A model generated the notes under the pieces. It searched no databases, was not told the DNA's origin, and saw only the letters and a list, made by a program, of their open reading frames with translations. DNA of 64,000 bases from a virus. Lineage: Duplodnaviria > Caudoviricetes. The stretch spans positions 104,961 through 168,960 of the IMG/VR virus record IMGVR_UViG_3300031992_000016, one strand, 5' to 3'. Positions within the stretch are counted from its first letter, which is position 1, and each line of letters starts with the position of its first letter. Of the stretch, positions 1 to 59,722 are shown one piece after another. The position numbers were made by a program, and so were the translations under genes.

Positions 1-475
1 CATCATAGTCGATATAAAGCGCCTTATCAGTGCCAGATAATGTGCCGTTATGCCATTGAATTAAAACTGAACCATGTACGCCGGTATTTTCATCTAAACC
101 AACACAAGCAGCCAAGTCCATTGTATCAAAGTAACGAGGTACTTCAAAGAATACAACTTCTGCGAGGTGGTCGCCAACAACTGCAATACCATTCTTTTGG
201 AAATCAGCTGGGACAGTAATAACACCGCTATTTGTATTAATAACAAAATACTGTTCATCAAATGGAACTCTCACATACAAAGGTAAGCGAGTCTAATCTA
301 TATTAGGCTTATTACGAATAATATCTAATGCTTCGTAATATTGAGACAAAGTTTCTACTTGTTGTAACCCAGAGTCAGCAGCCAATTGTTTTCCAATAGT
401 CATTGGCTCTGCATTTTCATTCTCAAATAGAACTCTGTTTAAACCCCTAGTTAAGGATTCTTGAGTTACTAGCAT
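1..475 (-). CDS. Putative virion structural (baseplate/tail-associated) protein, 3'-truncated by window edge; TAG=Gln
   Basis: ATG at 475 with SD GAAAGGAG. In-frame TAG at 293-295, then the frame stays open to the window edge (TRLPLYVRVPFDEQYFVINTNSGVITVPADFQKNGIAVVGDHLAEVVFFEVPRYFD). Confidence 0.75.
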
Positions 476-500
476 AGCTCCACTACTCCTTTCTCATAAT

Positions 501-530
501 TCGAGGAGTGCATTAAGATGCACTCCTCGA
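501..530 (-). terminator. Perfect 13-bp stem-loop with weak U-tract; terminator, attenuator or processing site
   Basis: tcgaggagtgcat-taag-atgcactcctcga, intergenic, just upstream of the SD of the 475 gene. Confidence 0.55.
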
Positions 531-564
531 TATCTATATACTTATCAAAAAATTATTAAATATA

Positions 565-780
565 TTATACTACTTCGTCCCGCATACTAATTTCATACCA
601 ATTAGTTGCCTCATCTTCTGGCACGGTCACTGTAACCATTTTGCGCGTACCATCTGTTAATAACTTCCCAGCATCTGCGCGCAATCTAATCAAACGTACA
701 TAATATACATCTTCTAAGTGGATAGGAGTTTCTAACACCCCATTAGTTCCAAGATAGCGATAAATAACTTGACGTGTCAT
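565..780 (-). CDS. Small hypothetical protein (71 aa), TAG-free
   Basis: ATG with SD GAAAGGGAG; TAA stop; directly follows the giant 799-8844 gene. Confidence 0.8.
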   Translation of the reverse strand: MTRQVIYRYLGTNGVLETPIHLEDVYYVRLIRLRADAGKLLTDGTRKMVTVTVPEDEATNWYEISMRDEVV

Positions 781-798
781 TTGAGTATCTCCTTTCCA

Positions 799-3700
799 TT
801 AAATATCTCCATTAGGAGTATAAATAATAAAGTCTGGCGCATCGACGCGAGTACCATAGGTAGGATTGCTGCTTGGAGAAGTGTCTCTTAAAGAACCCCA
901 CAACTAGCTACCATAAGAACCAGTCTGTTCATCAATTCCACCGATAATATCATTTCTACTATATTCTGATAAATCTAAGTATAACATAATTGTTTTAGTT
1001 CTAACATCATTAGCAAACCAAGCAACCTGGCCATTATTATCTACAGGTGGATTAACAAAATTCTCACGACCTGCTTCACCAGTAAAGTCACGTCTAAATG
1101 GTGCTTGACTGCCATCTCCACCTTGACCATAACTTACTAATGCTGATGTATTAACTGGATTATCTACTGTACCAAATTCAATAGTTTCGTAGCCAATATT
1201 TTCAAATGCTCTTAATCCAATCTATGAAATATTAACATTGGCAGTTAATACAAGACGTGTATTAGCAATATATCTTGCTCCGCCTTCTTTATTAGCAGCA
1301 TCGTCTCTATTACGTAACAAACCAACTGAGTTCATTTGGATAAATGCTCTTGTGCCAATAACCGATGCATTAATTGGATCATGCAATACTAGGCGTGTAG
1401 CATAAGCAACTGCGCCAGGTCCAATTACATTTAATGACTGTGGTATATCAAGATGACGTAAGTTAGGCATATAAGCAAACGCACATGTACCAAATTCTGT
1501 AATCCGACAAGGATTTTGTTCATCATTCATACCTTCAAAGAAGATGTGAGTAATTTGCGCATTATGTGTCTGGCCATTCTCTACTGTTGCTGTTGGTACA
1601 TTATCTTGGATAATACCATTGGCTGCCATCTTTGTAACAGTATAATTAACTGTTTCACCACCGCCAACATCAACAGTAATTGTTCTTGGGATACAAATCT
1701 TACCGTAAGCTAATGGGCATCCCTTTTTAATACTAATAGAAACTTCAGTACCTTGAGCATTATTAGTAGCGATATTAAAGTTTTCTGTTGTACCAGGGAT
1801 AGGATAATCATATACGCTTACTGTTTTGAATTGTGCGAAGAACGTAATTGGCTTATCTGTTGTTGGAGTACGAGTTGAATTATAAGTATAATATACATCA
1901 TTAGCTTCTGGTACTTCTTTTGTGGTCCATCCTAAGAAATGATAAGTCTGTGCCAATGGCAACATTGAATCATCCTTATATGGATTAACTCTTGAGAATT
2001 GAATTGGCTCGCCTGCATAAGCAGTACCAGTTAATACATTCCCATCAAAATCAGTAGCAGGAGTAGTCGCATTAAACATATACGTAATTAAATATGGTGT
2101 TTTAGAATAAACTGCAACTAATGTATAATTAACTAAATTGCCGCCTGTTGGTTGCAAAGATAAAGAAGACAAATTAACTTCACCCATGCTATTTGCAGGA
2201 AGGATAGTACCAGCATCAATTAAATTTAATGCCTCGGTTTTATCTAATTGAGATGCCTTGGCACGCCATTGCTCAACGGTATATTGATTTTCGCCATCAC
2301 CAGCAATAGCCCAACCCATAAAGTCATAATGCAAACGACGTGGTTTTTCAAAATTCTCTGAATAAGATACCTGTGCATTACCAAATCCATTTGCATACTT
2401 TTGAGTGCCAAACTCATGCATGCTCTTACCTTCATCATCTAAGAATTCAATAAAGCGCGCACGATTAGCTTCTGTTACGTAATTTGCGGTAATATCAAGT
2501 TTATTGAAATTACCAGTAGCCTGATAGTAAGCAAAAATTTCTGCTTCATTTACTGGCGTACTTGAAGTATTATTGATATGTACTTTACCAGTAATAGTAG
2601 GAATTAATTTTTCATTCTTATTTGTAACACTATCTAGCAATGGACGGAAATGATAATTTTCAATGCTGCCTTGACTAATACGGTCTTGGATGAAATTATT
2701 AAACAATGATAAATTAGTGATTGGGCTTTCACCTTTTTCAGTATCATATAGATATAATAAACCATCACGTTTATCTTGTTCAAATTGTGTAATATTAACA
2801 CTAGGATTAATATTACCAGCACCAAAATAACGCACATATTTAATTTGATCTCTATAGTAATAATTTGCTTGCTGTGATTCATCATAGCTTTCATCAACAG
2901 CTACTTGATGATAAGGTGTCCAATCAGCATTTAAAACTTGGATACGCAAATCTGCAGAAGTACCAGTGTGTGCCGTCGTTGGATTAGCAATACGTTCTCT
3001 CTTTAATTTTACCAAATAAGCTAGCATCTTATAAGTATCATAGCCTAATAAAGTATCATCCATTTGATAATATTGAATAATAGAATTGTATTCATCTGGA
3101 ATTGCAGAAGTAGTTAATGCATAATCTAACTTATCAGTTAAATCTTCTATATATAAACCTTCTTGATTATTTCCAGCACTTGTCTATGATTTGCTCGTTA
3201 AAATTCTAGTTAATTTCAATGGTGAAATCAAAGACAAATTACCAATAGTCTTTGGCAAATAAACTGTAGTTAATACATTACCTGCAGGCATTGGCGCCTG
3301 TGCAATTTCAGTACCTAATAGTTTTAAAACTTCTAACTTCGGACAATCTTTAATATCTGGATCACCAGTTAATTGTTTTAAATTACTTAAATCAACTAAG
3401 CGTAATAATCCACGTGGTCCAATAGCAAAGCTGGTTAAATTATTGTTGTAATAACCTTCCCTATCATCACCAACTTTTAGCTCACGAATTCTGTCTGCAG
3501 AACCAAGCACAAATTCATTCAAATATTTAGGAGCTAAATCGCCTAAACTTGAAACATATTGTGGGCCTCTTACATAAGCTAATTGCTGCGTTAAAGCAAC
3601 ACCCAAAGATGCACGCTTACCAATTGAACTTGGTGGCTCAATAGTAACGTTTTCAGCAGTGCCGCCTAATTTAAATTTAACACTTGGTGCAGCAGTTTGG

Positions 3701-6700
3701 TCATATAAGACTGTAACATACTGTGATAAATATGGTGTAATTGTAAATGTTGCGTTAGAATCAAATTGTTCATGGCCAACCATATTGTCATCAGATGTTC
3801 TATCCTTATCATTTAAATTATAACGCATTTTAATTTGAGCACTTGTATTAATTGGGTCATATGCCGCAGCACTCCAGTGAGAATCAAGATAATTAAATCT
3901 ATTACGAATTAAAGACTAACGTTGTAATGAACGGTCACCTTGTAAGCAATAGAAATAATCAGATGTGATAACTGTTGAATGGTCAGGAGCAACATATCCT
4001 AAACCATTAATAGCTGGAGCAATATATTTATAAAATGCATCGTAGTTCTTCATAGATTCAGACCATCTGTTACTACTTGCAGTTTCATAATATTGCGTAA
4101 TCGCTTCTTGTGTTAAAGATTCACGAATTGCTTTATACAAGTTAGCAATTTCACGAGAGAAACACAACTGAACGTTATTCCATAAAACCGAACCATTACC
4201 AGAGAAAATAGAGTCTGTAGTTCCACTGGCAGAATAAACCTCAATATTAGCGACACCATTGTCGTCAAATACGGTTCTTGTTGTTAAAGGAGGAGTTGCA
4301 TCAACATCATAATCCCAATAAACCTGACCAGAGTTATTAATACCTAACTGCGTATCTAAGTCATAGAAAATAGGATACCAGATATAATCTCCGCCCTCAC
4401 GTTCAGGACCCCAAGAAGCAAGCATCATATTCTTTTGACGAGAGTCATATAGTAAGAAGAATTCAGTGAATACAAAATAGAAAAGTACATAAGCCAAATT
4501 TAAATGTTCGCTAAATTCATTGCGGAACTTAGCTAAGCGGTATCTGTCATTATCAATAGTAAATTTCTCATATAATACGCTAGCATCAAAACCATCAATA
4601 TCAATACTTAAATTTAATGTTATATATTTGACCCAATAAGTTGAATCACTATTATTAACATTAACAAAGGTAATACCTAAGTCATTTGCTAAATCAACGA
4701 CATGAGAACCATAATGCCAACGCCAATTTGGTTCTTCATTAGTACCATCGTTACTATAAATAAAGCCTTGCTCACCAACATATTCTTCATTAGTATGTTC
4801 TTTATCATCGGTTTCTAAAGATTTTAAGAAACTCCAAATCTTACTTGAATCAGTAATTTCAAAAGTAATGTCTGCAGAATCTTTTAGGTTACTATTTTTA
4901 ATTTCACCAGTTTTTGGATCAAGAGTTAAATGGTCTGTTAAATACGCACCCTTTTTAGTTACATGATTTGCAACTGTAATGGTAGCAGGAGTGTATTCAT
5001 TTGTATCACTATCATAATGATAATATTCTACACCTGGTTCATACTCAGTAGATAATGTACGATAATATTTTGTACCAATATCACGTACTGGCTGAGAAGC
5101 TTTTCTGCCAATATAAGAAGTAACGTCAGTCTAACGAATCCAATCCCAAAGTCTATGCAAGTTTTCAGTACGATTTACCCATTCAAAGGCATTACCATCG
5201 CCATCTTTACCAGAAACAACACCTGTACCTACCATTTCTGGATAACGCTGTTCAAAATGTTCAGAAATTTCATAATATTGAACTTCTTGTCCATTAATAG
5301 TAGTTGTACTTGTTGCTAACCAGTTATCTGCCACAGAGTCATCTTGGAACTTACCATGACCAGCTTGATTTTGACGGAATTCCCAACATTCACAAACATC
5401 AGCATATGTAGGATTGGTAATTGTTTTCAATGTACCAGTCTTCATATTTTCTTTATAGTTAGGATCATCTTCATCATCATTGACTTTAGTTACTTGCAAT
5501 GTGTGCAAATATTTATGAGTTGCTGGAATTACAGAAGGATTATCATCAGATTCTTCTTGTGTAGGATCAAAATCTGGATTAGCCTTTTCCTCATAAGTAA
5601 AACCAAAAGTGTTTTCACATTCTTTATGAGTATTAATATTGTAACGTCCAACAAACTTAATGTCGCCTGCGCCATTTTCCCAGAATAATAAGATTGGGAA
5701 ACCAAAAACAGTAGTACGATAATTTTCAGTAGCACCTTCTGGATCTAATCTCTTTAATGGGTGCCGCAAATCATAACCAGCACCTGAATAATTACCTGCC
5801 AAATAAGCAACTAAATTTGCGCCGGGAGTATTATGAGAAGAAGCACTATCCATATAATCAGCTTTTAATACTAATGACTTATTTTGCATACTGAATGCGA
5901 AATCTTGTCCATTAATTTTAGTACCAATAACTATTGTACCTTTATTCTTATTTGGGTCAGTAGCATTAGGTTTAAACTTGATATATTTATTTTTTACTTT
6001 TAAATCCGCTTCGGTAATTGCAATATTGGCTTCATCACCATCCCACCAACAAATTTGGAATGGATTTGGTTCTGCTACTTTATCTTTATCATTCCAGTCT
6101 GCTGAACCTTGCTTTAATTTAAGCTAGAAATTACGACGTGGATAACCTTGTGAAGAAGTACCTTGTACGTCAATAGTAACATTTGTAGCTTTCCAACAAC
6201 GTTCTGGATCAAATGGATCATAATAACGAATATTACATCCGTACTTATCGCCCTTTTTATATGGCAATTCATCCATTAATTTTTTAACGCCGTCAATTTT
6301 ATCAGTTTTAATTACCATAATAGGAATTAATTTTTTTGCTTTAGCGTTAGCGTATTCGATAAAGTTTTGCTTAGGATCTAAAATACCCTGGTTTTTATCA
6401 TAACGCTCTTTTTTAATTCTCAATGTTGGGCCATCTGCGGTCCAGTTTTGAGTAATACTACTGAAAGGCAAGTCATTCTCATAAATACGAATATTATAAA
6501 GGTCAATATCGCAATAATCAGAATAAATATATAAACCTTCACGACGTGTATTTGGATCCAAATTCTGCGCAAATGATTGCGTAAATGAAGAGTCTGCTGG
6601 GAAGGTTAAAATATTTGTAATAACGCCATTAATATAAGCAAAAATTACAGGCTTACCTAATGTTTTTGTTGAACCATCTTCCATCTTAAATGCTGGATTT

Positions 6701-8844
6701 TGAGAAACAACAAAAGAAACTTTAACACGAACATCATCTGTATAGCGTGCATTAACCAACAAAGATTTAGATAATGCCAAGAATGCTTCTTGAGTACCTA
6801 AGATTAAACCTTTATCAGAAGCATAATACTGTAAGAACGTGCCGCGGCCGTTAGTAGTAACTGTACGAGCAAGAACTTCACCACCAGTAAGCGGATTTTC
6901 TTGAGGTACTAAATTACCATCTTGATCAACAGCAAGACCTTTCTCATTAGCATGGTATTTACTCTCATCATAAGCAAATGCTTCTTGCAAATCGGAATCA
7001 TAATATTTATATTTTCTTTCGCCATTCTCATCTACTTCAGTTAATTGCTCATAAGTTAAATAAACTGTTCTTGTTTCAATTAATCGTGAATAGTCTGTTG
7101 CATTATGAATAGCAAATTCAAATTCATAAGTTTGGTTACCGCCAGCACTAAAAACTGAGCAAGGAATAAATACAGATGCGCCATTAGATACTCTTAAACA
7201 AGTATTACCATCATCATCTTTCAACCAACCATTATTGTACCAGTTAAAATTATTTAATTCAATTGGTGCATTTTCATATGATTGAGTTGTAAGATTATAT
7301 GTCTTTAATATATTGTTGCTTGCTTTCTTTGCTGTATTATTCCATTGAGCACGCTTAATTTTTGATTCATTATTAGAACGTCCAGTAGCAGATAATTCTA
7401 ATACAGCATCTTTTTCAGGTTCAAGAGTGTATTGTGAATTACGTGTTATTGTTACTTCAGTCGTCCAAGAAGTTTGACCAGCAACAATAGTAAATACGTT
7501 TTGTCCTAATTGATAATTACCAACTTCCCAATAGTTATAATCATTAGGATTATATGCTACATCTAAAGAACTAACTTCTTCACCATTAACATAGAAGAAG
7601 ACTTCTGTAGAAGCATTATTAGAAGGATCAACTACCATATAAGGAATGGTAATTAAAGTATAGTTTTCAAAAGTCGCTTCATGTTGGAAAGGAGACCAAA
7701 TAATTGGTGTTAAATTACCAGTAACGAACCAACCGATTTCATAATGTAAGCCACTTGTAATAGGAATGGTTACACCATTTAATGTCATTGTCGCTTCGAT
7801 GTCTAATGAATGATTACCGTGTGCGGCGTCAATAAACAAATCTGCCAAAGGAACCGCACCACTGGCTGAAGTAACGTCTCTTGTAATAGTGCGTTCTGTC
7901 GTAAGTCCGCGATCAATGGTGGCTGATATTTTCATATTTGACGTATCAATTAAAGCATTAAAATCAGTTTGACTCATAGAAGTATCATAGGTTACAGTAT
8001 ATGCATAATCAAAGTCATCTAAGGATTCTGCATTTTTTAACTCACGAGGCTTCCAGAAAATTTCATTTGCAACCAAATGAATATCAATAACTTGAACATT
8101 TTCCCAACTCTTAGGAGATTTACGTCCATTAACAGTTGCATATAGTTTTAAAATATTAGTACCTACACGCAAATAGTTATAAGGAATTTCAACCGTAGTT
8201 TCACCAGCATTAACATCGCAACGACCAATCATCATGGTTTCACGGAATGGTGCTACTGCTTCTTCGCTAGCATAGAACTCTACATATAAAGTACCATTAT
8301 GACCTTCACGTGTTAAGCTATCTAAGATACGAGCTTTCAAAGTAATGCTTGTACCAGAAACAACCATTGCTAATGGACTTTCAGTAACTAATACGGTAAC
8401 ACCAGAAGATTGCTCGCCTTCTCCACCACCGCCACCAGTACCAGCAACTAAAATTTTTGTAACATAGCAATTTTCATCATCAATATCTATAATACGATAT
8501 AATGAACCATCTTTGTTTAAAATAATATCATTCGCTCCATAGGTCTCCTATTTAACTCCCATTTCTTCATATGCTTCAGCAATACTTGAGCGAGGGAAGA
8601 TATTTGATGCTGCACCGTGACCACTTGGAGCAGGCAATAAACTTTCTACTTGTGAGCCATAGACAAATTTTATCCCAGATGCGCCAACAGAGTGTCTTAA
8701 TCCGTCAGCATCATCAAAATAAAGACGCTCTGTGTCTGTAGTAAAATATACAGCGCCAGGAGTAGTTGGTAATCCATCAATCGCATGTTCAGTACCGCGA
8801 TAAACAGAAAACGCATCTTGGGAAACAGAAGCTTTACTTGCCAT
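799..8844 (-). CDS. Giant multidomain virion/adhesin-like protein (2681 aa): LamG-like, CotH kinase-like, LRR, Listeria-Bacteroides repeats, BspA-type LRR; TAG=Gln
   Basis: Six track ORFs share one frame, joined by TAGs at 8548, 6124, 5131, 3916, 3184, 1222 and 904. SD GGAAAGGAG at the start, TAA at 799. Motifs DVQGTSSQGYPRRNF, LKADYMDS, DSRQKN, WYPIFYDLDT, YDFMGW/YHFLGW, ITEFGTCAFAYMPNL. Confidence 0.8.
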
Positions 8845-8866
8845 ACTTGTACTCCTTTCCTCTAAA

Positions 8867-8904
8867 TATCATAGCCATAAGAATGAATTCTTATGGCTAT
8901 GATA
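8867..8904 (-). terminator. Perfect 18-bp inverted repeat (hairpin) with weak U-tract
   Basis: tatcatagccataagaat-ga-attcttatggctatgata between the 8919 stop and the SD of the 8844 gene. Confidence 0.55.
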
Positions 8905-8918
8905 ATCTATATAATTAA

Positions 8919-10646
8919 TTAAAATGAACCCCAAACTAAATTAATAGCAACACCATTACTATTTGTGCCTGCACTTAATGCCAATGAAGAAGATTCAATA
9001 TAATGTGATGTCTTCTTATTGTTAGAACCATCGGCCAAAGTAAAGGTACTAATTAATTCAGCAGAATTTACATCAAGATCAACACTGTTGGCAATGTTAG
9101 TGATACCGCTACGAGTATCAGTAATAGTCATTGTCTCAGTTGTTAAACCATTAATATGACCAGAAGAATCATAAGTAACTCCAGTAACAAATGTTTTTTG
9201 CATTTGTACAACGCCATTAGTAGCTGTTGCGCCTACCATGGTTGAAGTAGAAGTAACTGGAGTAAATGTACTAGCAGCATGTCCAACACTTACAACTCTA
9301 CCGGCACCAGAGCCAGTTGAAGATACAGTAAATTTATTATCAAAATTAATAGTACCATAAGTATTATTATTACGAATTAATGTAATTTGGTTAGAATCGC
9401 TATCTGCATTGAACATATAAGTTGCAGTAACGTCTTCACCTGATCTTACATGAGTCCATTCAATACCATTCGCTGGTAAATAACCAGTAGTAGCATTTTC
9501 TGAATATCCATCTTTCGCACTCGCAATAACAATATCACCTGGTAAATATTGGTCTGCGCCAATAGTGAAACCTGACTAGACAGCATAAGTATCGCCAATT
9601 GAAATATTAGATGTCGGTAAAGCCGTAGTTGTAGAAGTCAATCCACCTTTAAACGTCATCGCATTAACTGCGCCTAATAAAGAATCAACTTGGCTTGTAC
9701 TATAAACATCTAAATCCCATGTTAAAGTAGTAACACGAGACGTGCCATTACCAGTAGAATTTTCAGTTGCTTTAACAGTCGTTTTACTACCAGCTTGACC
9801 ATACGAAATTTTTGGTGCCAATTTTGCACCAGACATATAAACAGTGCCTTGAGGAGTACCACTAGAAGGTAAAGAAGCATACCATTTACCTTGTAAAATA
9901 CCCTCTTCACCATCATAAGTTAAATACTCATCTTTACCAGTGGTAATAGTAACTGTACCTTTGGTATTTGTTGCATTAGACTCACTTAAACTAACGGCTG
10001 CACCGCCAGCACCTTTAATAGTAATATTACCAAGATTATCTCCACTACGGGTATTAGCTTGACCATTGCCAATTTTATACTCGGTTCCGATACTCAATAA
10101 AGTACCACCAGTTACCGCGGTAGCAGTTAATTTTGCAGTATCTACTTCTGATTCTGCCGTAATTGCAGGAGAAGCAGTAGTGCTACTACTGTCCTAGGTA
10201 AATTTAACAGTACTGCTATCAACTAATCTATAATTAGTGCTTCTTAAAACATCATTACCATTCTTTAATGCTTGAGTAATAGTAATTTGCCCACCATCGG
10301 TATCTAAAGATGTTATAAAAGCACTGACATATTCAGTAAATTCTTTTTGAGCATTAATCTGCTTCCATCTGGTTCCATCCCAAGCGCACAAAATATTTTC
10401 TGCTGCGATATAATAAATTGCATCTTTAGCTTTTGTATTACCTTGTGTATCAGCTTGGAATGTAGCCCATGACTATGTTACTCTGACAGTATCGCCCAAA
10501 CGAATACGTTGGAGACCTTTTGTGCCGCCAAAGTCATGGTCTAAATATATGGCTTGTTCATCAGTAGTAATTAAAATCTAACCATCTACTAGAGCAGCGC
10601 TGCTTAGATTATCTAACAAGCCTTTTTTAAAGACTACATTACTCAT
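8919..10646 (-). CDS. Putative tail fibre protein (575 aa), Thr/Ser/Gly-rich; TAG=Gln
   Basis: Three track ORFs in one frame; TAGs at 10578, 10473, 10194, 9576. Starts MSNVVFKKG with SD AAAGGAG; ends INLVWGSF-TAA. Confidence 0.75.
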
Positions 10647-10663
10647 GTACCATTCATCTCCTT

Positions 10664-11917: not shown

Positions 11918-11988
11918 AACATTTTTCACTCCCTTTCTATATGGCTTGGTCTTTCTATTATATTCAAAATCACATAAGACAGATTAGT

Positions 11989-13737: not shown

Positions 13738-13738
13738 A

Positions 13739-14086: not shown

Positions 14087-14104
14087 AAATTTTAAACTCC
14101 TTTA

Positions 14105-19296: not shown

Positions 19297-19299
19297 CGC

Positions 19300-19689: not shown

Positions 19690-19719
19690 ATCCTTTTCCT
19701 CCTAAAAGTAGTTATAATA

Positions 19720-45641: not shown

Positions 45642-45656
45642 GTATTATATCAATAA

Positions 45657-46739: not shown

Positions 46740-46756
46740 ATGCGTTTCCTCCTTAA

Positions 46757-48045: not shown

Positions 48046-48062
48046 ATTAACTCCTCCTTTAA

Positions 48063-49028: not shown

Positions 49029-49341
49029 CTAACTAATTCGCTAAATCAGTTAATAGTGAAATTGCACTAAAAACTGTTTTGCGATATATCATAAAATCGG
49101 CTTCGTCAAGCAGACCATACAATTCAGTAACAAATACTAAAAAGTCTAATTCACCGCCAAATATTTTGTCTAACCCACGAAGTTCAAGTAATACAGTTTT
49201 AATCTATCCTTGCCAATCCTCTTGATTTTCACGCATCGGCAATAATTTCCAAATCTGATTGACCAGACGACGCAAATCGGTCACTACAACACCTGGTTCA
49301 AATTTGAACTCAGTTGTTTCTGATTGCTTCCCACTTGCCAT
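49012..49341 (-). CDS. Hypothetical neck-region protein (about 109 aa), absent from ORF track; TAG=Gln
   Basis: RLVNQIWKLLPMRENQEDWQG*IKTVLLELRGL; fills the gap between neighbours; start uncertain because the SD is weak. Confidence 0.65.
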
Positions 49342-49891
49342 AATCAATACCATTATCGCTATCTGCGTCGCCAGATCCTTCATGAATAATCTTAACAGTA
49401 CCAGCTAATGCAGCTTCTTCTTGCTTTGGAATAGCACTATCATTAAGCATATGCCAATTAGACATAACATGTCCAGTTTCTGGTACAATTTTACGCCGCT
49501 TATATAAACGTTGTGCGTGAATATTCTCGCGCCACACCTCAGTCTTTAAATTTAAAAGCTTCGCAAGATGATTAGCTTGCGAAGTAAATTTAAAATCTGA
49601 ACCGCTATATTTCATGCGTGTATTTTCAATAGAAGAAATCTGTCGGTCCAACCATACGACTTTCATTAAAATAGCGAAAATATTAATTTCTTCTCTGGTT
49701 AAATCAACATTGTATTGCTCTTGATCTGCGTCATAATCATATAGAGCAAATCTTGGAAATTCAAAGTAGGATATGGCATCTAATAGAATCTATTTACAAT
49801 CACGAATAGTATCTTCCTCAGTCAATTCCAAATACTAATCATCTGTAATTTTACCAAGGAAGGCATTATAAATAGTTTCAAATGATGTCAT
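49310..49891 (-). CDS. Putative head-tail adaptor (193 aa); TAG=Gln
   Basis: ATG 49891 with SD AAGGGGGAG; MTSFETIYNAFLGKITDD*YLELT; DFKFTSQANHLAKL; TGA stop. Confidence 0.68.
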
Positions 49892-49892
49892 A

Positions 49893-50492
49893 TTACTCCC
49901 CCTTTGCCTCTTCTTTCTGCACTACTTTATACTGAGGAGTAGTGCGGCGACCACTAGTTTTAGTTTCGGCCTATACTCTACGGGTAGGTGCAGCCTTTAC
50001 TTCCATACCACTATCAGTAGTATTTGCTTCTTCAGCCTGCGCAGCTTCAACTTCTGCCTTATGCTGCAAAGCAAGCGTTATATCAAAACCAGTCTTTGCT
50101 TTAAGAGCTTCGCGCTTACGCGCATCATTGCAAGGCAATTCATAAGAATATTTCTTGATTAAATCTATTACACCATCAGGCGCAAAATCAAGGCAATCAA
50201 GGAATGCTTCAACGCTACCATTTTGAATTAAATCAATAACGCCTTTTTCATCCAAATAATATTCAGGTTCAATCCGAATAGGCATTTCCTTCACTACTTC
50301 TGTATCTTCAATAAATAGACTATCACGAAGCATTACAGTACCACCTGGAACAAAACTTAAAGCATCCAACTCTTCACGAGTAAGATTTTTTACTTCGCCA
50401 GGCTACCATTCGCGGCGAATGCCCATATCTGGAATCGTATAAATAAGCATTCTACTACTGCGATTACGCACTTTAATTTTATTGTCTGCCAT
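49893..50492 (-). CDS. Hypothetical protein after major capsid gene (199 aa); TAG=Gln
   Basis: ATG 50492 with SD AAAGGAG; TAGs at 50403 (RREW*PGE) and 49971; TAA at 49893. Confidence 0.78.
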
Positions 50493-50545: not shown

Positions 50546-50558
50546 TTATATATGATTA

Positions 50559-51614
50559 TTAATCGCCCGTTTCATTTGCAGAACGTGTAACATTCAATTG
50601 ACCTTTAAGAGCATCGTCGATATATACGCAGATGTCTGGAGTCATAACAACACCAACGCCTACTTTCTTATAGACCTGAATTTCACGGCTGCGATCCTTA
50701 TTGACATATTCATCAACAATAGTGCTACCTTCCATAACAACCTTGGCAGGCTTTACAGCACCTGGAAGAATATAGCAATAACCTGGGTCAATAACCTTTG
50801 TCTGATGAGTTGCATCAGTGAAGCCCTGTGGAAGAATAGTAATAGGATGATTCTTATAAGAAGCAAAACGACCATTATTCCAAATAGTATCCTTCATATT
50901 GTCAGAATACATAGCAGCATTAGCAGGACGAATCTTAGAAGCAAATTCTTCAGTGCAATAAATGGTAGGAGTACCATAAGCTGCAGCGATAGAAATTAAA
51001 CGATCAAATGCTGCTTCATCCCAACCAGTAACTTCAGCAGTATTAAGAGCTGGAAGCTGATTCAAACCAGTCTTCAAAGCCTGACCGATTTCCCAATAAA
51101 TGAGTTCGTCAAGACCTTCCATAACAATACGAGTTACCTCAGCAAAATCAGCACGACCATCAAGGAACTCTTCCAAACCAATCTGAGCGGCACCGCCGAT
51201 AGCACTGGTCTGTACTTCGATAGGCGTATCTTTACCAAGCTTAAATACTTCGTAAATACCAGCCAAACCGACCTTGGTGATGAACTGCTTTGCACGCTGA
51301 CGATCATGCCAACGCATAAAGATAGCCTTGTCACCCTGAGCCATGGTCTTTACTTCGGCAAACTTGCCATATTCCTGCTCAACTTTACGAGGAAGAACAT
51401 CATCCATGGTCTGTTCGATTAATTCAAAGATAGTATTCTTATTTTCACGATAAAGAGCAAAAGTGCCTGCATACTCATTGAGTTCTTTACGAAGGGTCTC
51501 ATTGAGTGCATCATAGGTGAGATTCTCACCATTAAATGAATATGCAACAGGAGCAGAGCGATCGGCCTTAGCTGTTGCCTTCATCAATTGAAGAAGTTCT
51601 TTCTTATCCAACAT
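50559..51614 (-). CDS. Major capsid protein (351 aa); TAG-free
   Basis: Size and position after the protease and head protein genes. Motifs ALYRENKNTIFELIE and AIGGAAQIGLEEFLDG; strongly biased codons; SD AAAGGAG. Confidence 0.8.
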   Translation of the reverse strand: MLDKKELLQLMKATAKADRSAPVAYSFNGENLTYDALNETLRKELNEYAGTFALYRENKNTIFELIEQTMDDVLPRKVEQEYGKFAEVKTMAQGDKAIFMRWHDRQRAKQFITKVGLAGIYEVFKLGKDTPIEVQTSAIGGAAQIGLEEFLDGRADFAEVTRIVMEGLDELIYWEIGQALKTGLNQLPALNTAEVTGWDEAAFDRLISIAAAYGTPTIYCTEEFASKIRPANAAMYSDNMKDTIWNNGRFASYKNHPITILPQGFTDATHQTKVIDPGYCYILPGAVKPAKVVMEGSTIVDEYVNKDRSREIQVYKKVGVGVVMTPDICVYIDDALKGQLNVTRSANETGD

Positions 51615-51634
51615 TGTCAATCTCTCCTTTCCTA

Positions 51635-52384
51635 TTACTGAAGTCTCATAATTTTAACAGCTGGTTGCATATCGCCAAGATTATAAACCTTAACTACCTG
51701 CCATACCATACCAGCAGGAAGAGCAGGAGCATTTTCACCACTAGGAGCGGTAACCTTAACAAGATAACCATCTTCGCCTGGGGCCAAAAGATCACCACGA
51801 GCTAAAGAACCTGGATCTGCTTTAATGCAGTTAGTAGTAAAAATATCACCCTCATGAGTCTTAAAGAGACGAGGTACCATAATACCCTGGGTATCAGTAA
51901 AGAGCTGTGGCTGATTTAATACTTCAACTTCATACTTGTTACCAATAGCAAAATGATTACGACCAAAATCTTCACCAGGATAGGTTTCGGTATGTCCATC
52001 TGGATAAATCTCACTATTAGCACCAATAGTCTTCATCAAAGGATTAAGATCAACATTATTAGCACCGGTTACACCAACTGGGCTATAAACAGAGCCGGTA
52101 TAGTCACGACGGATCATTGCGAAGTCCTGATCGGTTTCGCCCTTGGCATAAACCTTTACTTCGTTATAAACTAACATCCACTCGCCCTTGCCGGTAAAAT
52201 TGACTACATTATTAGCATAGTCATACTTTGCAAACTGACCATTCTCAAGAATCTTAATATTCTTAGCTGCTGGCAACTGTGCATAAATCTCGCCAGTGCG
52301 CTGTGCAGACAAATGGTTAGGTTCAACCTGACCGAAGCCATAAGTTACATAAGTGGCTACCGGTGAAAGTCTTTTAAAAGCCAT
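51635..52384 (-). CDS. Head structural/decoration protein (249 aa); TAG-free
   Basis: Intact ORF between protease and major capsid genes; GQVEPNHLSAQRTG motif; SD AAAGGAGG. Confidence 0.65.
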   Translation of the reverse strand: MAFKRLSPVATYVTYGFGQVEPNHLSAQRTGEIYAQLPAAKNIKILENGQFAKYDYANNVVNFTGKGEWMLVYNEVKVYAKGETDQDFAMIRRDYTGSVYSPVGVTGANNVDLNPLMKTIGANSEIYPDGHTETYPGEDFGRNHFAIGNKYEVEVLNQPQLFTDTQGIMVPRLFKTHEGDIFTTNCIKADPGSLARGDLLAPGEDGYLVKVTAPSGENAPALPAGMVWQVVKVYNLGDMQPAVKIMRLQ

Positions 52385-52405
52385 TGTAGCTTCCTCCTTT
52401 ATTTA

Positions 52406-53743
52406 TTACATATTTTTGGCGGTTTCGCGCACGGCCTTAATCCAGGCAGGAGCGTTATCTGACTCGCCCGTTTCATCTAAATTGAAAGTGAAGTCTTTTT
52501 CAGGCTTCTTTTCAGTATCAAGGTCGAAACTTACCTTGTTACGAACACAAAGAATACATAATTTAGCTTCAATATCGTCCAAAGAATATTCATCAATCTT
52601 TGAAACTACATCAGCCTTATCGGCATCTGTAAGCATATAGAAACTATCAATCATGTCTTGCTTAGCCTTGCGATCGGCATCAGCCTTGAACTTGCGCAAT
52701 GGCTCAAGTTCAGCAGTAAGAGAATTTACCTGCTCTTGAAGAGAAGCGAACTGTGATTGAAGATCCTTGTAAAGTTCAGACTCAGTAATCTCTTCATCAG
52801 AAAGAGAATGCTTGGTCTTTTTCTTCTTTTTATCTTCGTCTTCATCATCTTCTGGTTCAGACTTGTCATCCTCACCATCGCCTTTATCAGATGCGGGCTT
52901 GTCTTCTTCCTTCTTCTTTTCATCAGAAGGATCTTCGCCTTTATCTTCTGGCTTGTCCTCGTTTTCTTCCTCGTCCTTGGGCTTCTTCTTAAATTCAGTA
53001 TCATCGTCCAAGGGGAGGTTCTCTTCAACAGGAGGATTTAATTTTTCATTCTCATTGTCCATGTGAGCATTTCCTCCTTTTTCCAGCATTGCTTTAATTT
53101 CCCCGACCATAGCATACATTGTCTGCTTAAAGTCATCATCTAGGGAGAATGTTGCAGCAATTCCGGCGCCTTCAAAGCAAGGTTCGCAATCCTCACCGAG
53201 AATGCAAAGTTTGGAAATTACTGCCTCATTGATTATAAAAAATTCAGGCCATCCATTATCGTCAAATGACCAATCTCCGTTAGTAAGACTTTCATCTAAC
53301 TCCATTGATTGATTATTCCCATTTGTTAAAATACGCTTAGATTCTGGATATGCCCCAGTCCAAATCCACCCTTCGGTCATTAGATACTCATGATCTACGC
53401 CATCATCAGTGAATGTTTGAAACCATACTTTTGCGTTCATATCTACAAATCCATAAGGACGTGTAGTATCAACAATTCTTATGCCATCGCCACGAATTTC
53501 TAAGTTCTTATTATGCTGCTCAAAATCATCTTTGTTTTCATTATAAAAACCAACGATTGGGCAGCCCGGCAAAGACTTAGCCATTTCAGTCGCAACAGCC
53601 TTGGTGATAACACTACCATTGCGGTTAGGTTCATCACCCACATAACATACTTTAATTTCACAATGTGAAATTAAAGGATTAACGGGAGTAAAATTCAATA
53701 ATGAAATTGTATTTTCCCGCGGTATGCTTATATGACGAGCCAT
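52406..53743 (-). CDS. Prohead protease/scaffold fusion (445 aa); TAG-free
   Basis: N-terminal NRNGSVI..H..QSMEL..LCILG..EPCFEGA protease-like motifs, then an acidic linker and a C-terminal coiled coil. Confidence 0.72.
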   Translation of the reverse strand: MARHISIPRENTISLLNFTPVNPLISHCEIKVCYVGDEPNRNGSVITKAVATEMAKSLPGCPIVGFYNENKDDFEQHNKNLEIRGDGIRIVDTTRPYGFVDMNAKVWFQTFTDDGVDHEYLMTEGWIWTGAYPESKRILTNGNNQSMELDESLTNGDWSFDDNGWPEFFIINEAVISKLCILGEDCEPCFEGAGIAATFSLDDDFKQTMYAMVGEIKAMLEKGGNAHMDNENEKLNPPVEENLPLDDDTEFKKKPKDEEENEDKPEDKGEDPSDEKKKEEDKPASDKGDGEDDKSEPEDDEDEDKKKKKTKHSLSDEEITESELYKDLQSQFASLQEQVNSLTAELEPLRKFKADADRKAKQDMIDSFYMLTDADKADVVSKIDEYSLDDIEAKLCILCVRNKVSFDLDTEKKPEKDFTFNLDETGESDNAPAWIKAVRETAKNM

Positions 53744-53755
53744 TTTACTCCCTCC

Positions 53756-55357
53756 TTAACCTTGTGAATTCTTATTAGCGATAGTTTTATCTGATTTTTC
53801 ACTATCAGCTTTTTCTGGTCGCCCACCTGTATTACTATCAGATTTGGCCGTTTTACTCTAACTTACTTCGCCCGCAGTTTTACCACTAGAACCAACTGCT
53901 TTACCAGACATAGTAGAAGACATCATTGGCGGTATCATAATATCAGACAAATGAAGTATCTCATTCTCGAAATGAGCAGTAGCTAAAATAGAACTCTGCC
54001 GTTGTCCCATAGCAACAAGAGGTAACATTTTAGAATAACCAATCTGCACTAATTCTTTATAGAATTTCGCAACTTCTTGGTAATTATAAATGGTAGTTTC
54101 TAACATATAGCTGCGGAAACTATACCGTTTATTTGGGGGACACTTTTTAGTTATCATTTTATTAAGGAAGGCTTCATACTGTAACAATAAGTTACGCATA
54201 GTGGCTTCATCGTTTAAAATAGATGATTGCAAAGCGATGTTTCCATCACTATTGAATAAATTTTGTGAAACACCAAATTCATTATAGACTTGTCTCTCAA
54301 TCTTCTCCAAACCATCCGCCGCGGCAGCAGTGCTATTTGAGTCAGCCATATCTGCAACATCAACGTCCGCAAAGGTAGTTAATACATCAACACCGACCGC
54401 ACGTTTTAACATACTAACTGCATTATTATGAATATCACGTGCTTCATCAACGTCGAATATTAAATCACCATTTTTATCAAGAGGCAATTTCTAAATCAAT
54501 ACTTTTAATAACTATTGCATGGTCTTACGACGGTCTAAATCCTGCGCCTAGTCTAAATCAATTAATGTAGGAATAGAATTAACCAAAATTGGCATATCCG
54601 ACCCATTTAAATTAAATTTAAACGCGGCAGCTGTATCCAACAAATACCAACCTTCACTATCACCAATGCCATCGCCCATTAGCTTATGCCGCTTATATAA
54701 TAAATATCCTTCTTGGAAATCTTCTGGGAACATTTTCAAAATCTTCATACGATAAACCGCATCAGGAAATTTATCATCAAAGAAGCGCATATTAAATTCA
54801 ATAGCCGGCATCCCAGCTTTAAAATAGCGACTGCGGCAATAATCAGTTGGTAGCTCTTGAATTGTCATACAGTCTTTGGTATCAACCCAATAACCATAAT
54901 AACAACCATCTCGAATAACCTTTAATGCAATATCGCCAAATACTTTTTTGAGATTAGAATTATCTAAATAAGTAAGTATTCGCGCAAATTCTGTCAGCAC
55001 TTTATCTTCTTTTAATTTATCATCTTCGATAATATATGGCGTAACATAATAATCATAACGATAAAGGAAGGCGAAGTATTTACATAAACGTTCATAAATA
55101 CCAGATATATCATAGAAATATTGTGATACTAAACGTTGAGTTGCATAATCTTTTTGCGCGAGTGCTTTTAAAATAAAATTCTTATCTGCATAAGTACGAT
55201 TGTTTTTCTTTAATGAGCCAAGGTCCAATATAGCATCTTCCAAATTTTGTAAGCCGACTTTAATTTTACGGAAGTCTATACTGTCATAATGAGGTGCGAC
55301 AACTGGCTCAGACATAGAAAATCCTTTGGCTTTAATTTCATCCTAATTTCTTGGCAA
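53756..55357 (-). CDS. Portal protein (533 aa); TAG=Gln
   Basis: TTG start after SD AAGGAGGTG; TAGs at 55343, 54548, 54512, 54491, 53858. C-terminal GGRPEK motif; size and position between terminase and protease genes. Confidence 0.8.
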
Positions 55358-55370
55358 TCATCTCACCTCC

Positions 55371-55727
55371 TTAGTATCCAGCTTTTTTCATAATATAATC
55401 ATAACTTAACAAATGTTCTTCTGTATAAGGAATTTCTATTAATTTATATCCATTCAAAGCACAAAAACGTCGTTTTAAATTATCATTATACTACTGTTGG
55501 AAAAATCCTTTTTTACCACCATATTTGGCAGAAGGCTAATAATGCTATTTTCCTTGATACTCTATTAAAAAATCTATTTCTCCATCATCATCAAATACAC
55601 AAAAATCAAATTTTAATGGTCTTCCACTTGTACTTACTAATCCTGCAAATTGCTGCTCCATAGTAAAATTAGCATCAGCTGCTTCTAGGATTTCGCGGAT
55701 AGTAATTTCTCCTCTACTTGCATTCAT
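55371..55727 (-). CDS. PD-(D/E)XK (Vsr/DUF559-like) endonuclease (118 aa); TAG=Gln
   Basis: LKFDF..LIEYQGK*HY..DNLKRRFC..LIEIPY; TAGs at 55545, 55536, 55491; TAA at 55371. Confidence 0.72.
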
Positions 55728-55731
55728 ATCT

Positions 55732-57468
55732 TTAACTCCCCTCAGTAAAAAACATCATATCACTAAGTCGCCCACGCTTACGTTTTTTACTATCCTCTTC
55801 CTACTTAATGTAGTATAATCCGTATTCAAATGCTGAAAACTTATCCTTGCGGATAGTATTATTTGCACGCTTTAAAATGATATTAACACCTTCATTTTCT
55901 TCGCGCAAATTCATCATTTCTTCTTTCAATATGGAAGTCAAAGTAAATGGTTTAAGATATTCTGCCCTTTCTTCGGGTTTCATCTCTTGTCCGCGTTTTG
56001 TTCCCATTAATTTATTTTTAGCAGCTCGCTCACTAATTAACATTTTTACACGCCCTGATGATAACTGAGTTTGTGCATTTGCGTGAGCCTCAGTGTTAAT
56101 AGGCGCATTTGCTTTAATTAAATAAAGTGCATCATACTCGCAATTATTAGTTTGATACTTTTTATAATAATTATCTTCATCATTATAAACACCAAAATCT
56201 GGGTATGTATCATTTGTGTCTGGATCTACTTGACCTTTAATCATATAATCGACTAGACCAATACCCAAACCGTTAGCATCAATTACTATACGCTTAGCTT
56301 TAAATTTATAATATAATTTCTTTAAATAAATTGCCTAATCTTCAAAGTGTTCATCTGACATTGTAAAAATATTTACTAATGTTTTAATAGATGCGCCAGC
56401 ACTTTGCGGCGTTACTTTAAATACACAAACAACAGAATCACAACCTTTGCGGCCAACATCAACAGAGAGTACATAATATGCTGTACTACGAGAACGTCCA
56501 GAATACTCATACTCTGGCTAATTTAATTTACGATTACGTTCAAATTGTTCGCTATTGAAGAAAGCATCTTCAACTGTGCCAGACCATTTAGACTCATACT
56601 CTCTATCAAAAGATGACTCATTAAATGTACCATCCATTTTTAAGTCTTTAATAAATGACTTAGAAAGCAAGCCCATGATAACTGGGATGCGCCAGGTTCC
56701 GCCCATAATAAATGCTTTATCTGGGTCGATAATCTATTGTACCAATAGCGTCATCAACTTATCGTAAGCAAATGTATTCTTCCATCCTGCTGTTGTAATA
56801 TATAATTGTGATTTATTTAAAGTTTCCTCTTCGCGCACCTCGCCGCTAGCGCAACGTCGCGCAACGTTCATTGTAGGAATTATAACTTCGTTTAAGATTG
56901 TACCATCAACACCAACGCACTCTTCAACAACACCGGCATGACGACGCTTACCACGCGAGGTATCTCTTGCCGCAATATTGTCAAACCAAGAGCCATTGTA
57001 AAAAACGTATTTACAGTAGTCTTTGCCTTCCATTGTTTTTCCTCGGCGGAAATCAATTTCGTGCGCGAAAGCTGGTATTAATGTACAAATTTCAGAAACT
57101 TTTTCTTTCATAATGCCGCTGGCCTGCTCTTTACCGCCAGAGGTAACGAATAAATGCGCACCTGGGTACAAGATACAACGAATAATAAGTATCATAACGG
57201 CTAAGAATGATTTAGAATAAGCACGAGGGAATACTGCATACACGTATTTTTTACGCATCGCCGCACGCATGAACACTCTTTGGTAATAAAATAACTAAAA
57301 ATTATTAGGATTACCAAATTGTAGCATAAAATCTACAAATAAATCTGGGTATTCACGCCAAAAAGCAACATATTGGCGCGCGATGGGTATAATAGCCCTT
57401 ACGCGCTCCTCAGATAATCCTATTTTATTTAAATCATTGCGCAAATTGAGTAAATCACTTAATGCCAT
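55732..57468 (-). CDS. terL: Terminase large subunit (578 aa); TAG=Gln
   Basis: Walker-A-like FPRAYSKSF, RGKRRH, Walker-B-like VVEE, YITTAG, nuclease SVDVGR and VIDANGLG, KDKFSA. TAGs at 57295, 56734, 56518, 56335, 55801. Confidence 0.88.
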
Positions 57469-58649
57469 TAGACCACCTCTTATTCATCTGTAAGAGATTG
57501 CATCCACTCTGCATCCTCTTCCTCTTGTTCTTCAAGGAAGTCGAAGTGATTTTCAAAATCTTCGTCCTTTAATTCTTCCAAATCTTCAATATCAAGTTCT
57601 TCATCGTCATCATCATCAGTCGTTAAGTCGGCTTCATTAGCATTAGATTTCTAAATTTCAATAATAGCCTGCTCAATACGGTCGCCTAAGTGCATCTCTT
57701 CGCGCACCAAGGTATCTGTATATTTTTGCATGTCCTTTAATGTTTCATCAACGTGGTCTTTTGGACTATCAACATAATATTTTGGAATAAAACCTTCCTG
57801 CTCGCAAATACGCACAAGCTCACCGACCGCATTTACATACTCGCCATTTTCATTTTTATTTTGCGCAGCAGTAAATTTAGCGGATTTCATTAACATGTCG
57901 TAGGTGCGCATTAGCTTTTGGAAGCCTTCAACATCGCCTAAGTCCAAAAGCTGATGCCCTTTAAGAGAGGTTTTACAAATAAACTTTAATTGGTCGATGT
58001 GCGCTGGTGTCTAAATGTCGAACGCTTCCATCATATCAGAGTAGAATTGTTCTAACTACACCCACTCATGTGGTCGATATGTTTTACCCCATTTAATAGA
58101 TAGATATTTCTTATCTTCTTCTGTTAAATCATCCTAAAAATCATCTGGTGTTAATAAATCAATTGGGGCTGGCGCAGCTTCTTCTTGTTTCGCCTACGGG
58201 TTGGCCCACTCAGGCTTCTCAGGCTTAAAATCTTTTTTAAGTTCATCGTCGATTTGTAATCCATCATAGCCCTATTCTTTCATGGCCGCAATTTTTTGCT
58301 ATTCCAGTTCGGCCTAAATCCTCTCAGTATCCGCCCAACGATAATCCTTAAATTGTTTGAGTTTCATCTTGGACAAATAACGGCCCAAAATTGTAACACC
58401 GGTTACTTTATTGCGGTCTTTGCCATATTTTTCTAGTAGTGAGTTCCACTCTTGCGGGATATATGGAACGTCGCATTCTTCTAATATCCATAAGTAAGTC
58501 TATGGATCCCAGTTATCAACATGTCGTGTAATACACTTTTTACACTCAAAAAGCTTACCATCTTTCGGGTATTTATCTAAACGGTATGATTGATAAAACT
58601 AATTGCCGTCCATGGTGCGGCCGCACGTTTTGCAATAATAATCTGCCAT
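57468..58649 (-). CDS. Zn-finger protein, putative terminase small subunit (393 aa); TAG=Gln
   Basis: CKTC..CKKC N-terminus and acidic C-terminus; TAATG coupling to terL; multiple in-frame TAGs. Confidence 0.62.
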
Positions 58650-58651
58650 AA

Positions 58652-59722
58652 TTAAGTCGCCTTCTTTCGGTTCTTAGCGTTGCGGCACTCCTTGCAGATA
58701 GAATACCATCCATCTTTTGAAGTGTTATTTACCGAAAAATAACGTTGATGTGCTAACTTAATTTGCCCACAGCGACTACACCGCTTCCACTTGCCCTTTT
58801 CCACGAACGTATAGTGCCACATCAAAAATTCATCTTGGGCGTATTGCGCGATGAGTTTAGGGATTTTATTGCGCCATAAAGACGAGATATATTCAACTGA
58901 GTGGGTGGTGCCGAATTCTTTTTCTAGTTGCGCCTTAATTTCTTCATTGGAGAAGTAAGACATTTTACATTCAGCGATGCGGCGATACATAGGAAATTTA
59001 TCAAGAGCCGCCGCATAATAGCGGTCGAAATCCTAGATGGTCGCCCACAGGTCAGTTTGCATATGATCCCAAACTTTATCTTTAATTTTGTGATAGTTGC
59101 ACATAATTGCGGAAATAACTTTGTAGTCACATAAAGAAATACCGCTCCAGCGCACCCCTTTTGTCTAAGGGTCAATCCACTCATCAAAGGGCAGCGTAAT
59201 TGGGAACCGAGTGCCACTATTCACATTCGTAAATTTAATGGGCGTCTTGTATGCGTTTTTGATTAAATACTAATCTTTCCGCATCTCGATCAATGTGCGC
59301 TTAATGATGTAAGCGTCACGCCCAGTTGCGACTTTCTACTTGGCTTCCCAGCGCTTTATTCCTTCTCTAAGTTCGCGCAAGAACGGTATTGTATCTACGT
59401 CTTCCTGAGTTATCATTACTTTTGGTTGAAAAATTACATTTTTATTATTTTCTACTAATAAATTATATACACCATCTTCGCCGTTCTCAAATTGCCCGAC
59501 CAACCCCTCAAATGAGGTTTCGCGTTTAGTTATAGTTGCCATGCGGTTCTCGGTGAGGAGGCGGCGCTATTTGCGTTCTTCTTTTTCCATACAGAGAACT
59601 AGGTAATCGGCCAATGCTTCAAGATACTGCGGAGTTGGGTCTTCCACTTCGGAGAGTATCTATTCAACTAATTTTAAACGCTCTTCTGGAGCTTCAATAG
59701 TATAGTCTAATTTTGTTGCCAT
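58652..59722 (-). CDS. Putative DNA-binding protein with HTH-like region and C-terminal Zn finger (356 aa); TAG=Gln
   Basis: ATG 59722 with SD GAAAGGAG; TAGs at 59660, 59567, 59336, 59270, 59033; CSRC..CKEC; TAA at 58652. Confidence 0.72.

Follow-up and report, generated by a model that had tools for sequence, protein, structure and literature searches.

A complete 169-kb tailed phage, probably of Bacillota, very likely reads TAG as glutamine in its late virion operon through a single phage tRNA(CUA)

Introduction

Reading of the stop codon TAG as glutamine (Gln) has been described for the phAss-1 group of phages by Babkin et al. 2023 (PMC10607447). The group includes phAss-1 (proposed Phassvirus), EF1 and Enterocloster phage PMBT10, large siphovirus-type phages of 130-140 kb with many tRNAs and with Clostridia as predicted hosts; TAG interrupts their genes for the terminase large subunit (TerL), the portal and a tape measure protein of >3000 aa, and they carry a tRNA-Sup(CUA) and no synthetase (PMC10607447). 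Here we analyze a 64,000-nt stretch of viral DNA (the window), positions 104,961-168,960 of the IMG/VR record IMGVR_UViG_3300031992_000016 (168,960 bp in total), which holds a recoded late virion operon on its minus strand. The phage is like the phAss-1 group in the interrupted genes, in the suppressor tRNA without a synthetase and in its probable host, and its portal, TerL and capsid proteins are homologous to those of phAss-1 (40%, 43% and 50% identity, respectively), with no similarity at the nucleotide level. It differs from the group in its larger genome (169 kb), in having one amber tRNA instead of two or three, and in the length of its tape measure protein, 4552 aa against 3149-3209 aa. 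The Phassvirus type carries the same long-arm type of amber tRNA beside a short one; the spare anticodon arm reported below is unmentioned in the phAss-1 paper (PMC10607447).

In the code-15 gut phages (crAss-like, Lak, Agate, Garnet, Topaz and others; 10.1101/2021.08.26.457843, PMC9523058), too, TAG encodes Gln, namely in genes for structural proteins and lysis. There, as in the present phage, early genes keep the standard code and a phage suppressor tRNA is encoded, and recoding has been proposed to act as a timer of late genes. The present phage differs from them in its Bacillota-type host and the lack of RF2, and probably in its lineage. Borges et al. (10.1101/2021.08.26.457843) found only TAG-to-Gln and TGA-to-Trp recoding in phages whose code is unlike that of the host, whereas the phage family considered here has TAG-to-glutamate (Glu) members as well.

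For the tRNA itself, two known types offer a comparison. The Escherichia coli suppressor supE (glnV44) likewise has a Gln tRNA body, G73, a weak 1:72 pair and an anticodon changed from CUG to CUA; its variable loop has the usual short length, and it suppresses weakly. The phage tRNA(CUA) differs from supE by an added arm of 21-24 nt that displays the triplet lost from the anticodon, CUG or UUG. Class II tRNAs (Ser, Leu and bacterial Tyr) also carry a stem-loop that separates the anticodon arm from the T arm, which the ribosome tolerates and which serves as an identity element for SerRS and TyrRS. What is conserved in the phage amber tRNA, in contrast to class II tRNAs, is the loop of the arm, which matches the anticodon loop of the inserted amino acid.

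Results

Late genes are continuous when TAG is read as a sense codon

Direct terminal repeats and a CheckV completeness of 100% mark the IMG/VR record as a complete genome; the terminal repeat, ~127 bp long, is common to the right end of the window and the genome start. The window has a G+C content of 34.9% and contains no tRNA genes. Under the standard code (table 11), the share of the window covered by stop-to-stop open reading frames (ORFs) is 57% for a minimum length of 100 aa, 29% for 200 aa and 10.9% for 400 aa. With TAG as a sense codon, these values rise to 97.7%, 87.7% and 74.9%. Reading TGA as sense does not help (63%, 32% and 10.9%), and reading TAA as sense gives 91%, 41% and 16.6%, a gain limited to short ORFs, in DNA that is A+T-rich.

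When TAG was translated as Gln, 29 minus-strand ORFs tiled the window from 2 to 59722 at a coding density of 98.4%, separated by small gaps or joined by ATGA-type overlaps. The intergenic distances range from -25 to +83 nt, apart from one gap of 323 nt and one overlap due to a miscalled start. Among the 19,694 codons of these 29 genes are 285 in-frame TAGs and not a single internal TAA or TGA; every gene terminates at TAA or TGA, and 21 are preceded by a Shine-Dalgarno-like motif. The frame at 30023-43681 stays open for 4552 codons, with 103 TAGs and zero TAA or TGA. As TAA and TGA together average 5.5% per codon over the minus-strand frames, the ln P of such a frame is about -257, and it cannot be attributed to chance. 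By the standard code, TerL would be split into 6 pieces, the portal into 6 and the tape measure protein into 104.

A preliminary description of the window had held that TAG is a sense codon in the whole morphogenesis module, that coding density would show it, and that essential genes are intact only on readthrough. All three statements agree with these figures, the gain being specific to TAG and absent under TGA-sense. Of the extent it had given, 1-59722, the upper limit coincides with the start codon of the operon's first gene, and position 1 is simply the edge of the window. The operon runs on the minus strand from genome position 164,682 down to 82,405 (82 kb), 23 kb of which lie to the left of the window.

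Recoding is concentrated in the late genes, while the replication genes on the plus strand (genome ~43.6-75.6 kb) use the standard code and are essentially free of TAG, including a gene of 1292 aa with none; a few plus-strand exceptions are taken up in the Discussion.

Conserved columns at TAG positions point to glutamine

To assign the amino acid, we compared the window with 80 IMG/VR loci around portal homologues 51-58% identical to that of the window, together with seven near-complete relatives and most of an eighth. In a star alignment, 9 of the 13 window TAGs at conserved columns fall on Gln. Four of them occupy invariant Gln columns: in the portal gene (54491-54493, 80/80), in an HNH homing endonuclease gene (55545-55547, 76/76), in TerL (56335-56337, 72/72) and in the first gene of the operon (43/43). 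Another TAG, at 47447-47449 among the small connector and virion genes, lies in a column with Gln in 23/30.

We repeated the comparison with standard-code references alone, that is, 4 genomes and 35 loci, which gave 57 TAG columns. Gln was the consensus in 8 of the 13 conserved ones. A Codetta-like likelihood on the 57 columns, calibrated with the genome's own sense codons, gave log-likelihoods of -147.9 for Q, -168.0 for E and -173.9 for K. Q was thus the best by 20 nats and came first in 2000/2000 bootstraps. These results support TAG as a codon for Gln in the late operon, as the preliminary description had proposed, and the likelihood does so with relatives that themselves use the standard code. 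The five protein motifs in which it had noticed that Gln would fit at TAG are all present, and four of their TAGs stand in the Gln columns of 76/76, 80/80, 72/72 and 23/30; at the fifth, no relative aligned.

A Gln-type amber tRNA is encoded in the left arm

ARAGORN detected 33 tRNAs, all of them on the plus strand between genome 26 and 39 kb; a single one has the anticodon CUA. This tRNA(CUA), at genome 37,355-37,447 (L081:11856-11948), is 93 nt long and lies 67.5 kb left of the window. It matches the Rfam tRNA model over the full length of the model (55.8 bits), and 20 additional bases are inserted in the variable region. Its acceptor end has an unpaired 1:72 (A1.C72), G2-C71, G73 and an encoded CCA, its variable region counts 21-24 nt, and its D arm, with a small D-loop, and anticodon stem resemble those of the phage's own tRNA-Gln(CUG). 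Of the identity elements typical for glutaminyl-tRNA synthetase (GlnRS), U35 is present, whereas G36 is missing from the anticodon and found in the loop of the spare arm.

A Gln tRNA with a CUA anticodon had been predicted outside the window, and one with a Gln-type acceptor end is present. A phage synthetase or release-factor modulator had been suggested as an option; this part fails, as the complete genome has no RF-1 domain (PF00472), no GluRS/GlnRS catalytic domain (PF00749) and no PylS (TIGR02367). Because the phage encodes no synthetase, charging by a host enzyme is needed.

Two further observations concern the tRNA genes. Directly downstream of the amber tRNA, L081:11967-12073 (genome ~37,466-37,572) matches Rfam's YrlA Y-RNA-like family weakly, with 32.4 bits against a gathering score of 69 (E 4.9e-5). 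Eight loci (L097, L107, L111, L114, L116, L118, L119 and L121) carry two amber tRNAs side by side, one long-arm and one short-arm; in these pairs, that of the Phassvirus type included, both tRNAs have G73 and a weak 1:72.

The variable arm repeats a sense anticodon loop

The variable arm of the phage tRNA(CUA) forms a conserved hairpin with the 7-nt loop CUCUGAA, which is the anticodon loop of tRNA-Gln(CUG). In a TAG-to-Gln relative (G001), a 90-nt amber tRNA has the same loop on a stem with a compensating change, UCC/GGA to UGC/GCA. We scanned IMG/VR with the amber loop and the T loop fixed and the spare-loop triplet left free (CTNNNAA). Among the 38 stretches returned, every long-arm amber tRNA had CUG or UUG as its spare triplet, both of which are Gln anticodons. 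A separate earlier amber scan had yielded 21 long-arm and 7 short-arm amber tRNAs. Across 22 distinct long-arm amber tRNAs, the 7-nt loop always reads C/U-U-[C/U]UG-A/C-A, all three loop-adjacent pairs of the stem change on both sides, and 98% of the cells are paired. Position 1:72 is U-A in 9, A-U in 1 and mismatched in 12 of these tRNAs, and never G-C or C-G.

A scan with the opal loop returned 13 tRNA(UCA) genes of 93-97 nt (on contigs L200, L202-L207, L209-L212, L214 and L215, several of which come from TGA-to-Trp relatives of the phage). In 12 of the 13, the spare loop is CUCCAAA, the anticodon loop of tRNA-Trp(CCA); the sole deviant, on L211, has CUUCCAA. The spare-arm stems covary in the ten that were aligned, and the D arm and anticodon stem are almost identical to those of some amber tRNAs. 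Three of these opal tRNAs lie on contigs whose late genes put TGA at conserved Trp columns. Since the amber-Gln tRNAs carry CUG or UUG and the opal-Trp tRNAs carry CCA, the spare triplet follows the inserted amino acid. The spare-arm design was not found in the literature searched.

Two other readings of the arm were discarded. The minimum-free-energy fold of the single sequence, a CCUCU/GGAGG stem with a GAA triloop, is not kept in relatives, whereas the model with the 7-nt loop covaries. On inspection, excising the segment between the two CU-C motifs does not restore a normal tRNA-Gln, as the remaining stems do not pair.

Charging route and other meanings of TAG

The host very likely belongs to the Bacillota and is probably one of the gut or rumen Clostridia. 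A scan of bacterial genomes for long-arm amber tRNAs returned only contigs of metagenome-assembled genomes (MAGs), plus unrelated matches, and the contigs concerned are probably binned phage DNA. Two Oscillospirales MAGs with such contigs encode a true GlnRS, with scores of 741 and 711 bits where the cut-off is 425.8.

Gln could instead arrive by the indirect route, in which the amber tRNA first receives Glu from a non-discriminating GluRS and GatCAB amidates the product, without GlnRS taking part. The cultured relatives infect Enterococcus, Lactococcus and Bacillus, where GlnRS is absent, and the mixture of Gln and Glu meanings of TAG in the family would be easily explained if both tRNAs were glutamylated and one type amidated. 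We nevertheless consider this route unlikely, given that the mismatched 1:72 in 12/22 long-arm amber tRNAs suits GlnRS, that GatCAB is reported to need U1-A72, and that both candidate host MAGs encode GlnRS.

That TAG means Glu in this phage, as in sister lineages of the same family, is very improbable. The idea is drawn from relatives G006 and G008, which read TAG as Glu, and from the window itself, where E is the second-best fit and is common in variable TAG columns. G006 (L082-L088, the contig of L040), a complete genome of 139,781 bp, shows what a Glu-reading phage looks like: the likelihood of TAG is -121.8 for E against -170.9 for Q, with E in 2000/2000 bootstraps, and Glu is the consensus at 18/20 conserved TAG columns. 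Its amber tRNA (84243-84316) has 74 nt, no spare arm, C1-G72, A73 and a large Glu-like D-loop. The window differs on both counts, as its likelihood and every bootstrap favor Q over E, and its tRNA(CUA) is of Gln type, with G73, an unpaired 1:72 and a small D-loop.

The size of the variable region raises a further alternative, to which we give even less credence, namely that TAG is Ser, Leu, Tyr or pyrrolysine (Pyl). A 93-nt tRNA with a class II-sized variable region of 21-24 nt, G73 and G2-C71 would suit such a reading, and ARAGORN labels this CUA tRNA 'Pyl'. Yet among the conserved TAG columns none is Ser, none is Tyr and one is Leu, and S, L and Y are outside the six best-fitting residues. 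The genome has no PylS and the tRNA aligns along the whole Rfam tRNA model, both of which speak against Pyl, and the loop of the arm is a conserved Gln anticodon loop, not that of a Ser-type arm.

Finally, the view that the phage is defective and its TAGs are errors of assembly or damage has nothing in its favor beyond the fragmented table-11 ORFs. It can be set aside almost entirely, because TAG is the sole interruption (285 against zero TAA or TGA), starts, tiling and homology are all kept across the TAGs, the record is complete with terminal repeats, and relatives show the same pattern at other positions.

The phage is a deep branch of a family with four codes

The portal shares 40% identity with that of phAss-1 and 31% with those of the Enterococcus phages EF1, H1 and VRE9 (140 kb), and at the protein level there are further relatives among Lactococcus 949-type phages and SPbeta-like and Bacillus phages. 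Against the phAss-1/EF1/SPbeta-like group as a whole, identities are 43-48% for TerL, 31-40% for the portal and 36-50% for the capsid protein. When 20 kb were compared with 50,697 phage records by megablast, nothing matched. The phage is a deep branch of the phAss-1/Enterococcus EF1/SPbeta-like large siphoviruses. An affinity to crAss-like or Lak phages was considered and dropped: among the tblastn matches listed for the portal and TerL, all relatives with a named host are phages of Bacillota, and none is a crAss or Lak record. Two contigs with identical or nearly identical amber tRNAs were likewise rejected as near relatives, since the portal of one (G016) is only 30% identical and the other (G017) is a 52-kb fragment without a portal match.

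We built a quick portal tree from the window and 63 other distinct portals, to which the window portal is at most 59% identical; phAss-1 itself is absent from it. The window stands on a long deep branch near other TAG-to-Gln lineages and does not belong to a crown clade in which all four codes occur. We are unsure of this placement because the branches are long. TAG falls on conserved Glu columns in L040/G006, L044, L054, L057, L059, L076, L079 and L080; these sister phages, together with G008, read TAG as Glu, and the tree requires at least two origins of this meaning. A Glu reading of TAG, too, was not found in the literature searched. TGA occupies invariant Trp columns in ~22 loci. As a side observation, ARAGORN found tRNAs with the ochre-reading anticodon UUA at L153:3226-3296 (G015, a relative classed as standard-code) and at L098:2898-2972, in a relative that also carries a Glu-type amber tRNA.

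The suggestion in the preliminary description that the lineage may be new holds only in part, as TAG-to-Gln recoding was already published for the phAss-1 group (PMC10607447), of which the present phage is a distant member, its portal being 40% identical to that of phAss-1. What was known is the recoding and its presence in the broad group (PMC10607447); what is added here is a deep-branching member.

Gene content of the late operon

The operon (2..59722 in the window, continuing to genome 82,405; minus strand) opens with a 356-aa gene holding 6 TAGs (58652..59722). Its product matches PHROG 5767, 'sigma factor' (E 1.9e-47), and has an HNH/zinc-ribbon-like C-terminal end; a Pfam search gave no match. 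It is followed, on the same strand as all genes described here, by a gene for a 389-aa protein with 10 TAGs (57480..58649; PHROG 3314, function unknown) and by TerL (55732..57468; 578 aa, 5 TAGs), which shares 47.8% identity with the TerL annotated in Enterococcus phage H1 and 47.6% with that of Geobacillus virus E3.

Between TerL and the portal lies the HNH homing endonuclease gene (55371..55727; 118 aa), which is itself written in the code of the phage, with 3 TAGs. In the Enterococcus phages EF1 and EF5, the TerL match is broken into three by an HNH endonuclease. The portal gene (53756..55357; 533 aa, 5 TAGs) matches PHROG 2739 (E 7e-89). Next come three genes without TAG, namely a head-module protein of 445 aa (52406..53743; PHROG 3313), a head-module protein of 249 aa in a scaffold-like position (51635..52384; 10 CAG and 1 CAA) and the putative major capsid protein of 353 aa (50559..51620), which is YonB-like (PF27364, SPbeta type). 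A PDB sequence search with the putative capsid protein found no match. Recoded stops are absent from this gene in all 36 distinct near-full-length homologues from the loci, those of recoded lineages among them.

Six small head-tail connector and virion genes (46757..50492) hold 2-9 TAGs each. One of these small virion protein genes has a TAG at 49835-49837 in a conserved Met column (44/44), an exception to Gln; this gene truly begins at an ATG (49889-49891) that lies 21 codons further downstream than the listed GTG. A 373-aa virion structural protein without TAG (45657..46778; PHROG 2729) is probably the major tail protein. The tape measure gene (30023..43681; 4552 aa, 103 TAGs) matches PF10145 with 94.5 bits, and its length implies a very long tail. 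The following tail, baseplate and fibre block (799..29939) comprises eleven genes of 115-2681 aa with 0-38 TAGs each and almost no family matches; the listed lengths are 1089, 2324, 129, 936, 794, 115, 590, 421, 575 and 2681 aa. At the left edge, 2..475 covers the N-terminal 158 codons, with 1 TAG, of a 661-aa gene cut off by the start of the window. Of 13 late proteins searched against Pfam, 12 had no match.

To the right of the operon, the end of the genome (59723..64000) has short ORFs on both strands without family matches and the terminal repeat; a PHROGs search of the ORFs at 59.8-63.9 kb found nothing.

Discussion

Taken together, the data make it very likely that the window carries the late virion operon of a complete 169-kb tailed phage of the Bacillota, in which TAG is a Gln codon served by one phage tRNA(CUA) that is charged by the host. 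The array of 33 tRNAs, including tRNA(CUA), lies in the left arm and shares its strand with the replication genes, which are free of TAG, and many late genes have a TAG within their first 4-60 codons. In the sequence of events that we picture, tRNA(CUA) would be made first, from the left arm. Before it accumulates, late genes bearing TAG, such as the sigma-factor-like first gene, TerL, the portal and the tape measure, would stop early, and they would become translatable only afterwards. Recoding would thereby gate late translation, along the lines proposed by Borges et al. (10.1101/2021.08.26.457843). If the sigma-factor-like first gene drives late transcription, its own synthesis would need the suppressor tRNA.

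TAG makes up 30% of the Gln-like codons in the operon, and the genes that contain TAG use CAA and almost no CAG. Five genes are free of TAG (45657-46778, 50559-51620, 51635-52384, 52406-53743 and 19300-19689), and three of these strongly favor CAG over CAA (9:2, 12:2 and 10:1). It is likely that TAG arose mainly from CAG, which it would have largely replaced in the late genes, and that it was kept out of the most abundant proteins. The yield of the most abundant virion proteins would then be independent of the efficiency of suppression.

How a host enzyme comes to accept such a tRNA is the question that the spare arm may answer. Tentatively, and with slightly more doubt than belief, we propose that this phage and many other phages of 80-200 kb use a two-legged suppressor tRNA, whose second hairpin is a surrogate identity element for an anticodon-reading class I synthetase of the host. 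The first hairpin would present a stop-reading anticodon to the ribosome, and the hairpin in the variable arm would present a sense anticodon loop, with CUG or UUG where amber is read as Gln and CCA where opal is read as Trp. We are less sure of a further step, in which the spare Gln loop would supply host GlnRS with the G36 determinant that the CUA anticodon lacks.

Several points weigh against these interpretations. With the standard-code references, 5 of the 13 conserved TAG columns are M, L, P, K and E, and the assignment of Gln is a comparative one throughout. The division into early and late genes is not clean, because some genes on the plus strand just right of the tRNA array (genome 39,978-43,524) and at 75,446-81,678 hold 1-5 in-frame TAGs. 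Binning into MAGs ties a tRNA contig only weakly to a host, and in many Bacillota, which have no GlnRS, Gln-tRNA is formed via GluRS and GatCAB. As for the spare arm, class I synthetases approach the tRNA from the face opposite the variable arm, so that the reach of the spare loop to the anticodon-binding domain is left unexplained.

In practical terms, standard pipelines would split the 82-kb operon into hundreds of fragments and miss the 4552-aa tape measure protein, TerL and the portal. Natural suppressor tRNAs with a spare arm offer parts for genetic-code engineering, and they give a testable answer to the open question of Borges et al. of how phage suppressor tRNAs are charged by the host. 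Within a single family of Bacillota phages, the same late genes are found in four different codes. If the two-legged tRNA is real, it would explain how phages take over the GlnRS and TrpRS of the host without enzymes of their own, and how, within one phage family, members could switch among the standard code, TGA as Trp, TAG as Gln and TAG as Glu.

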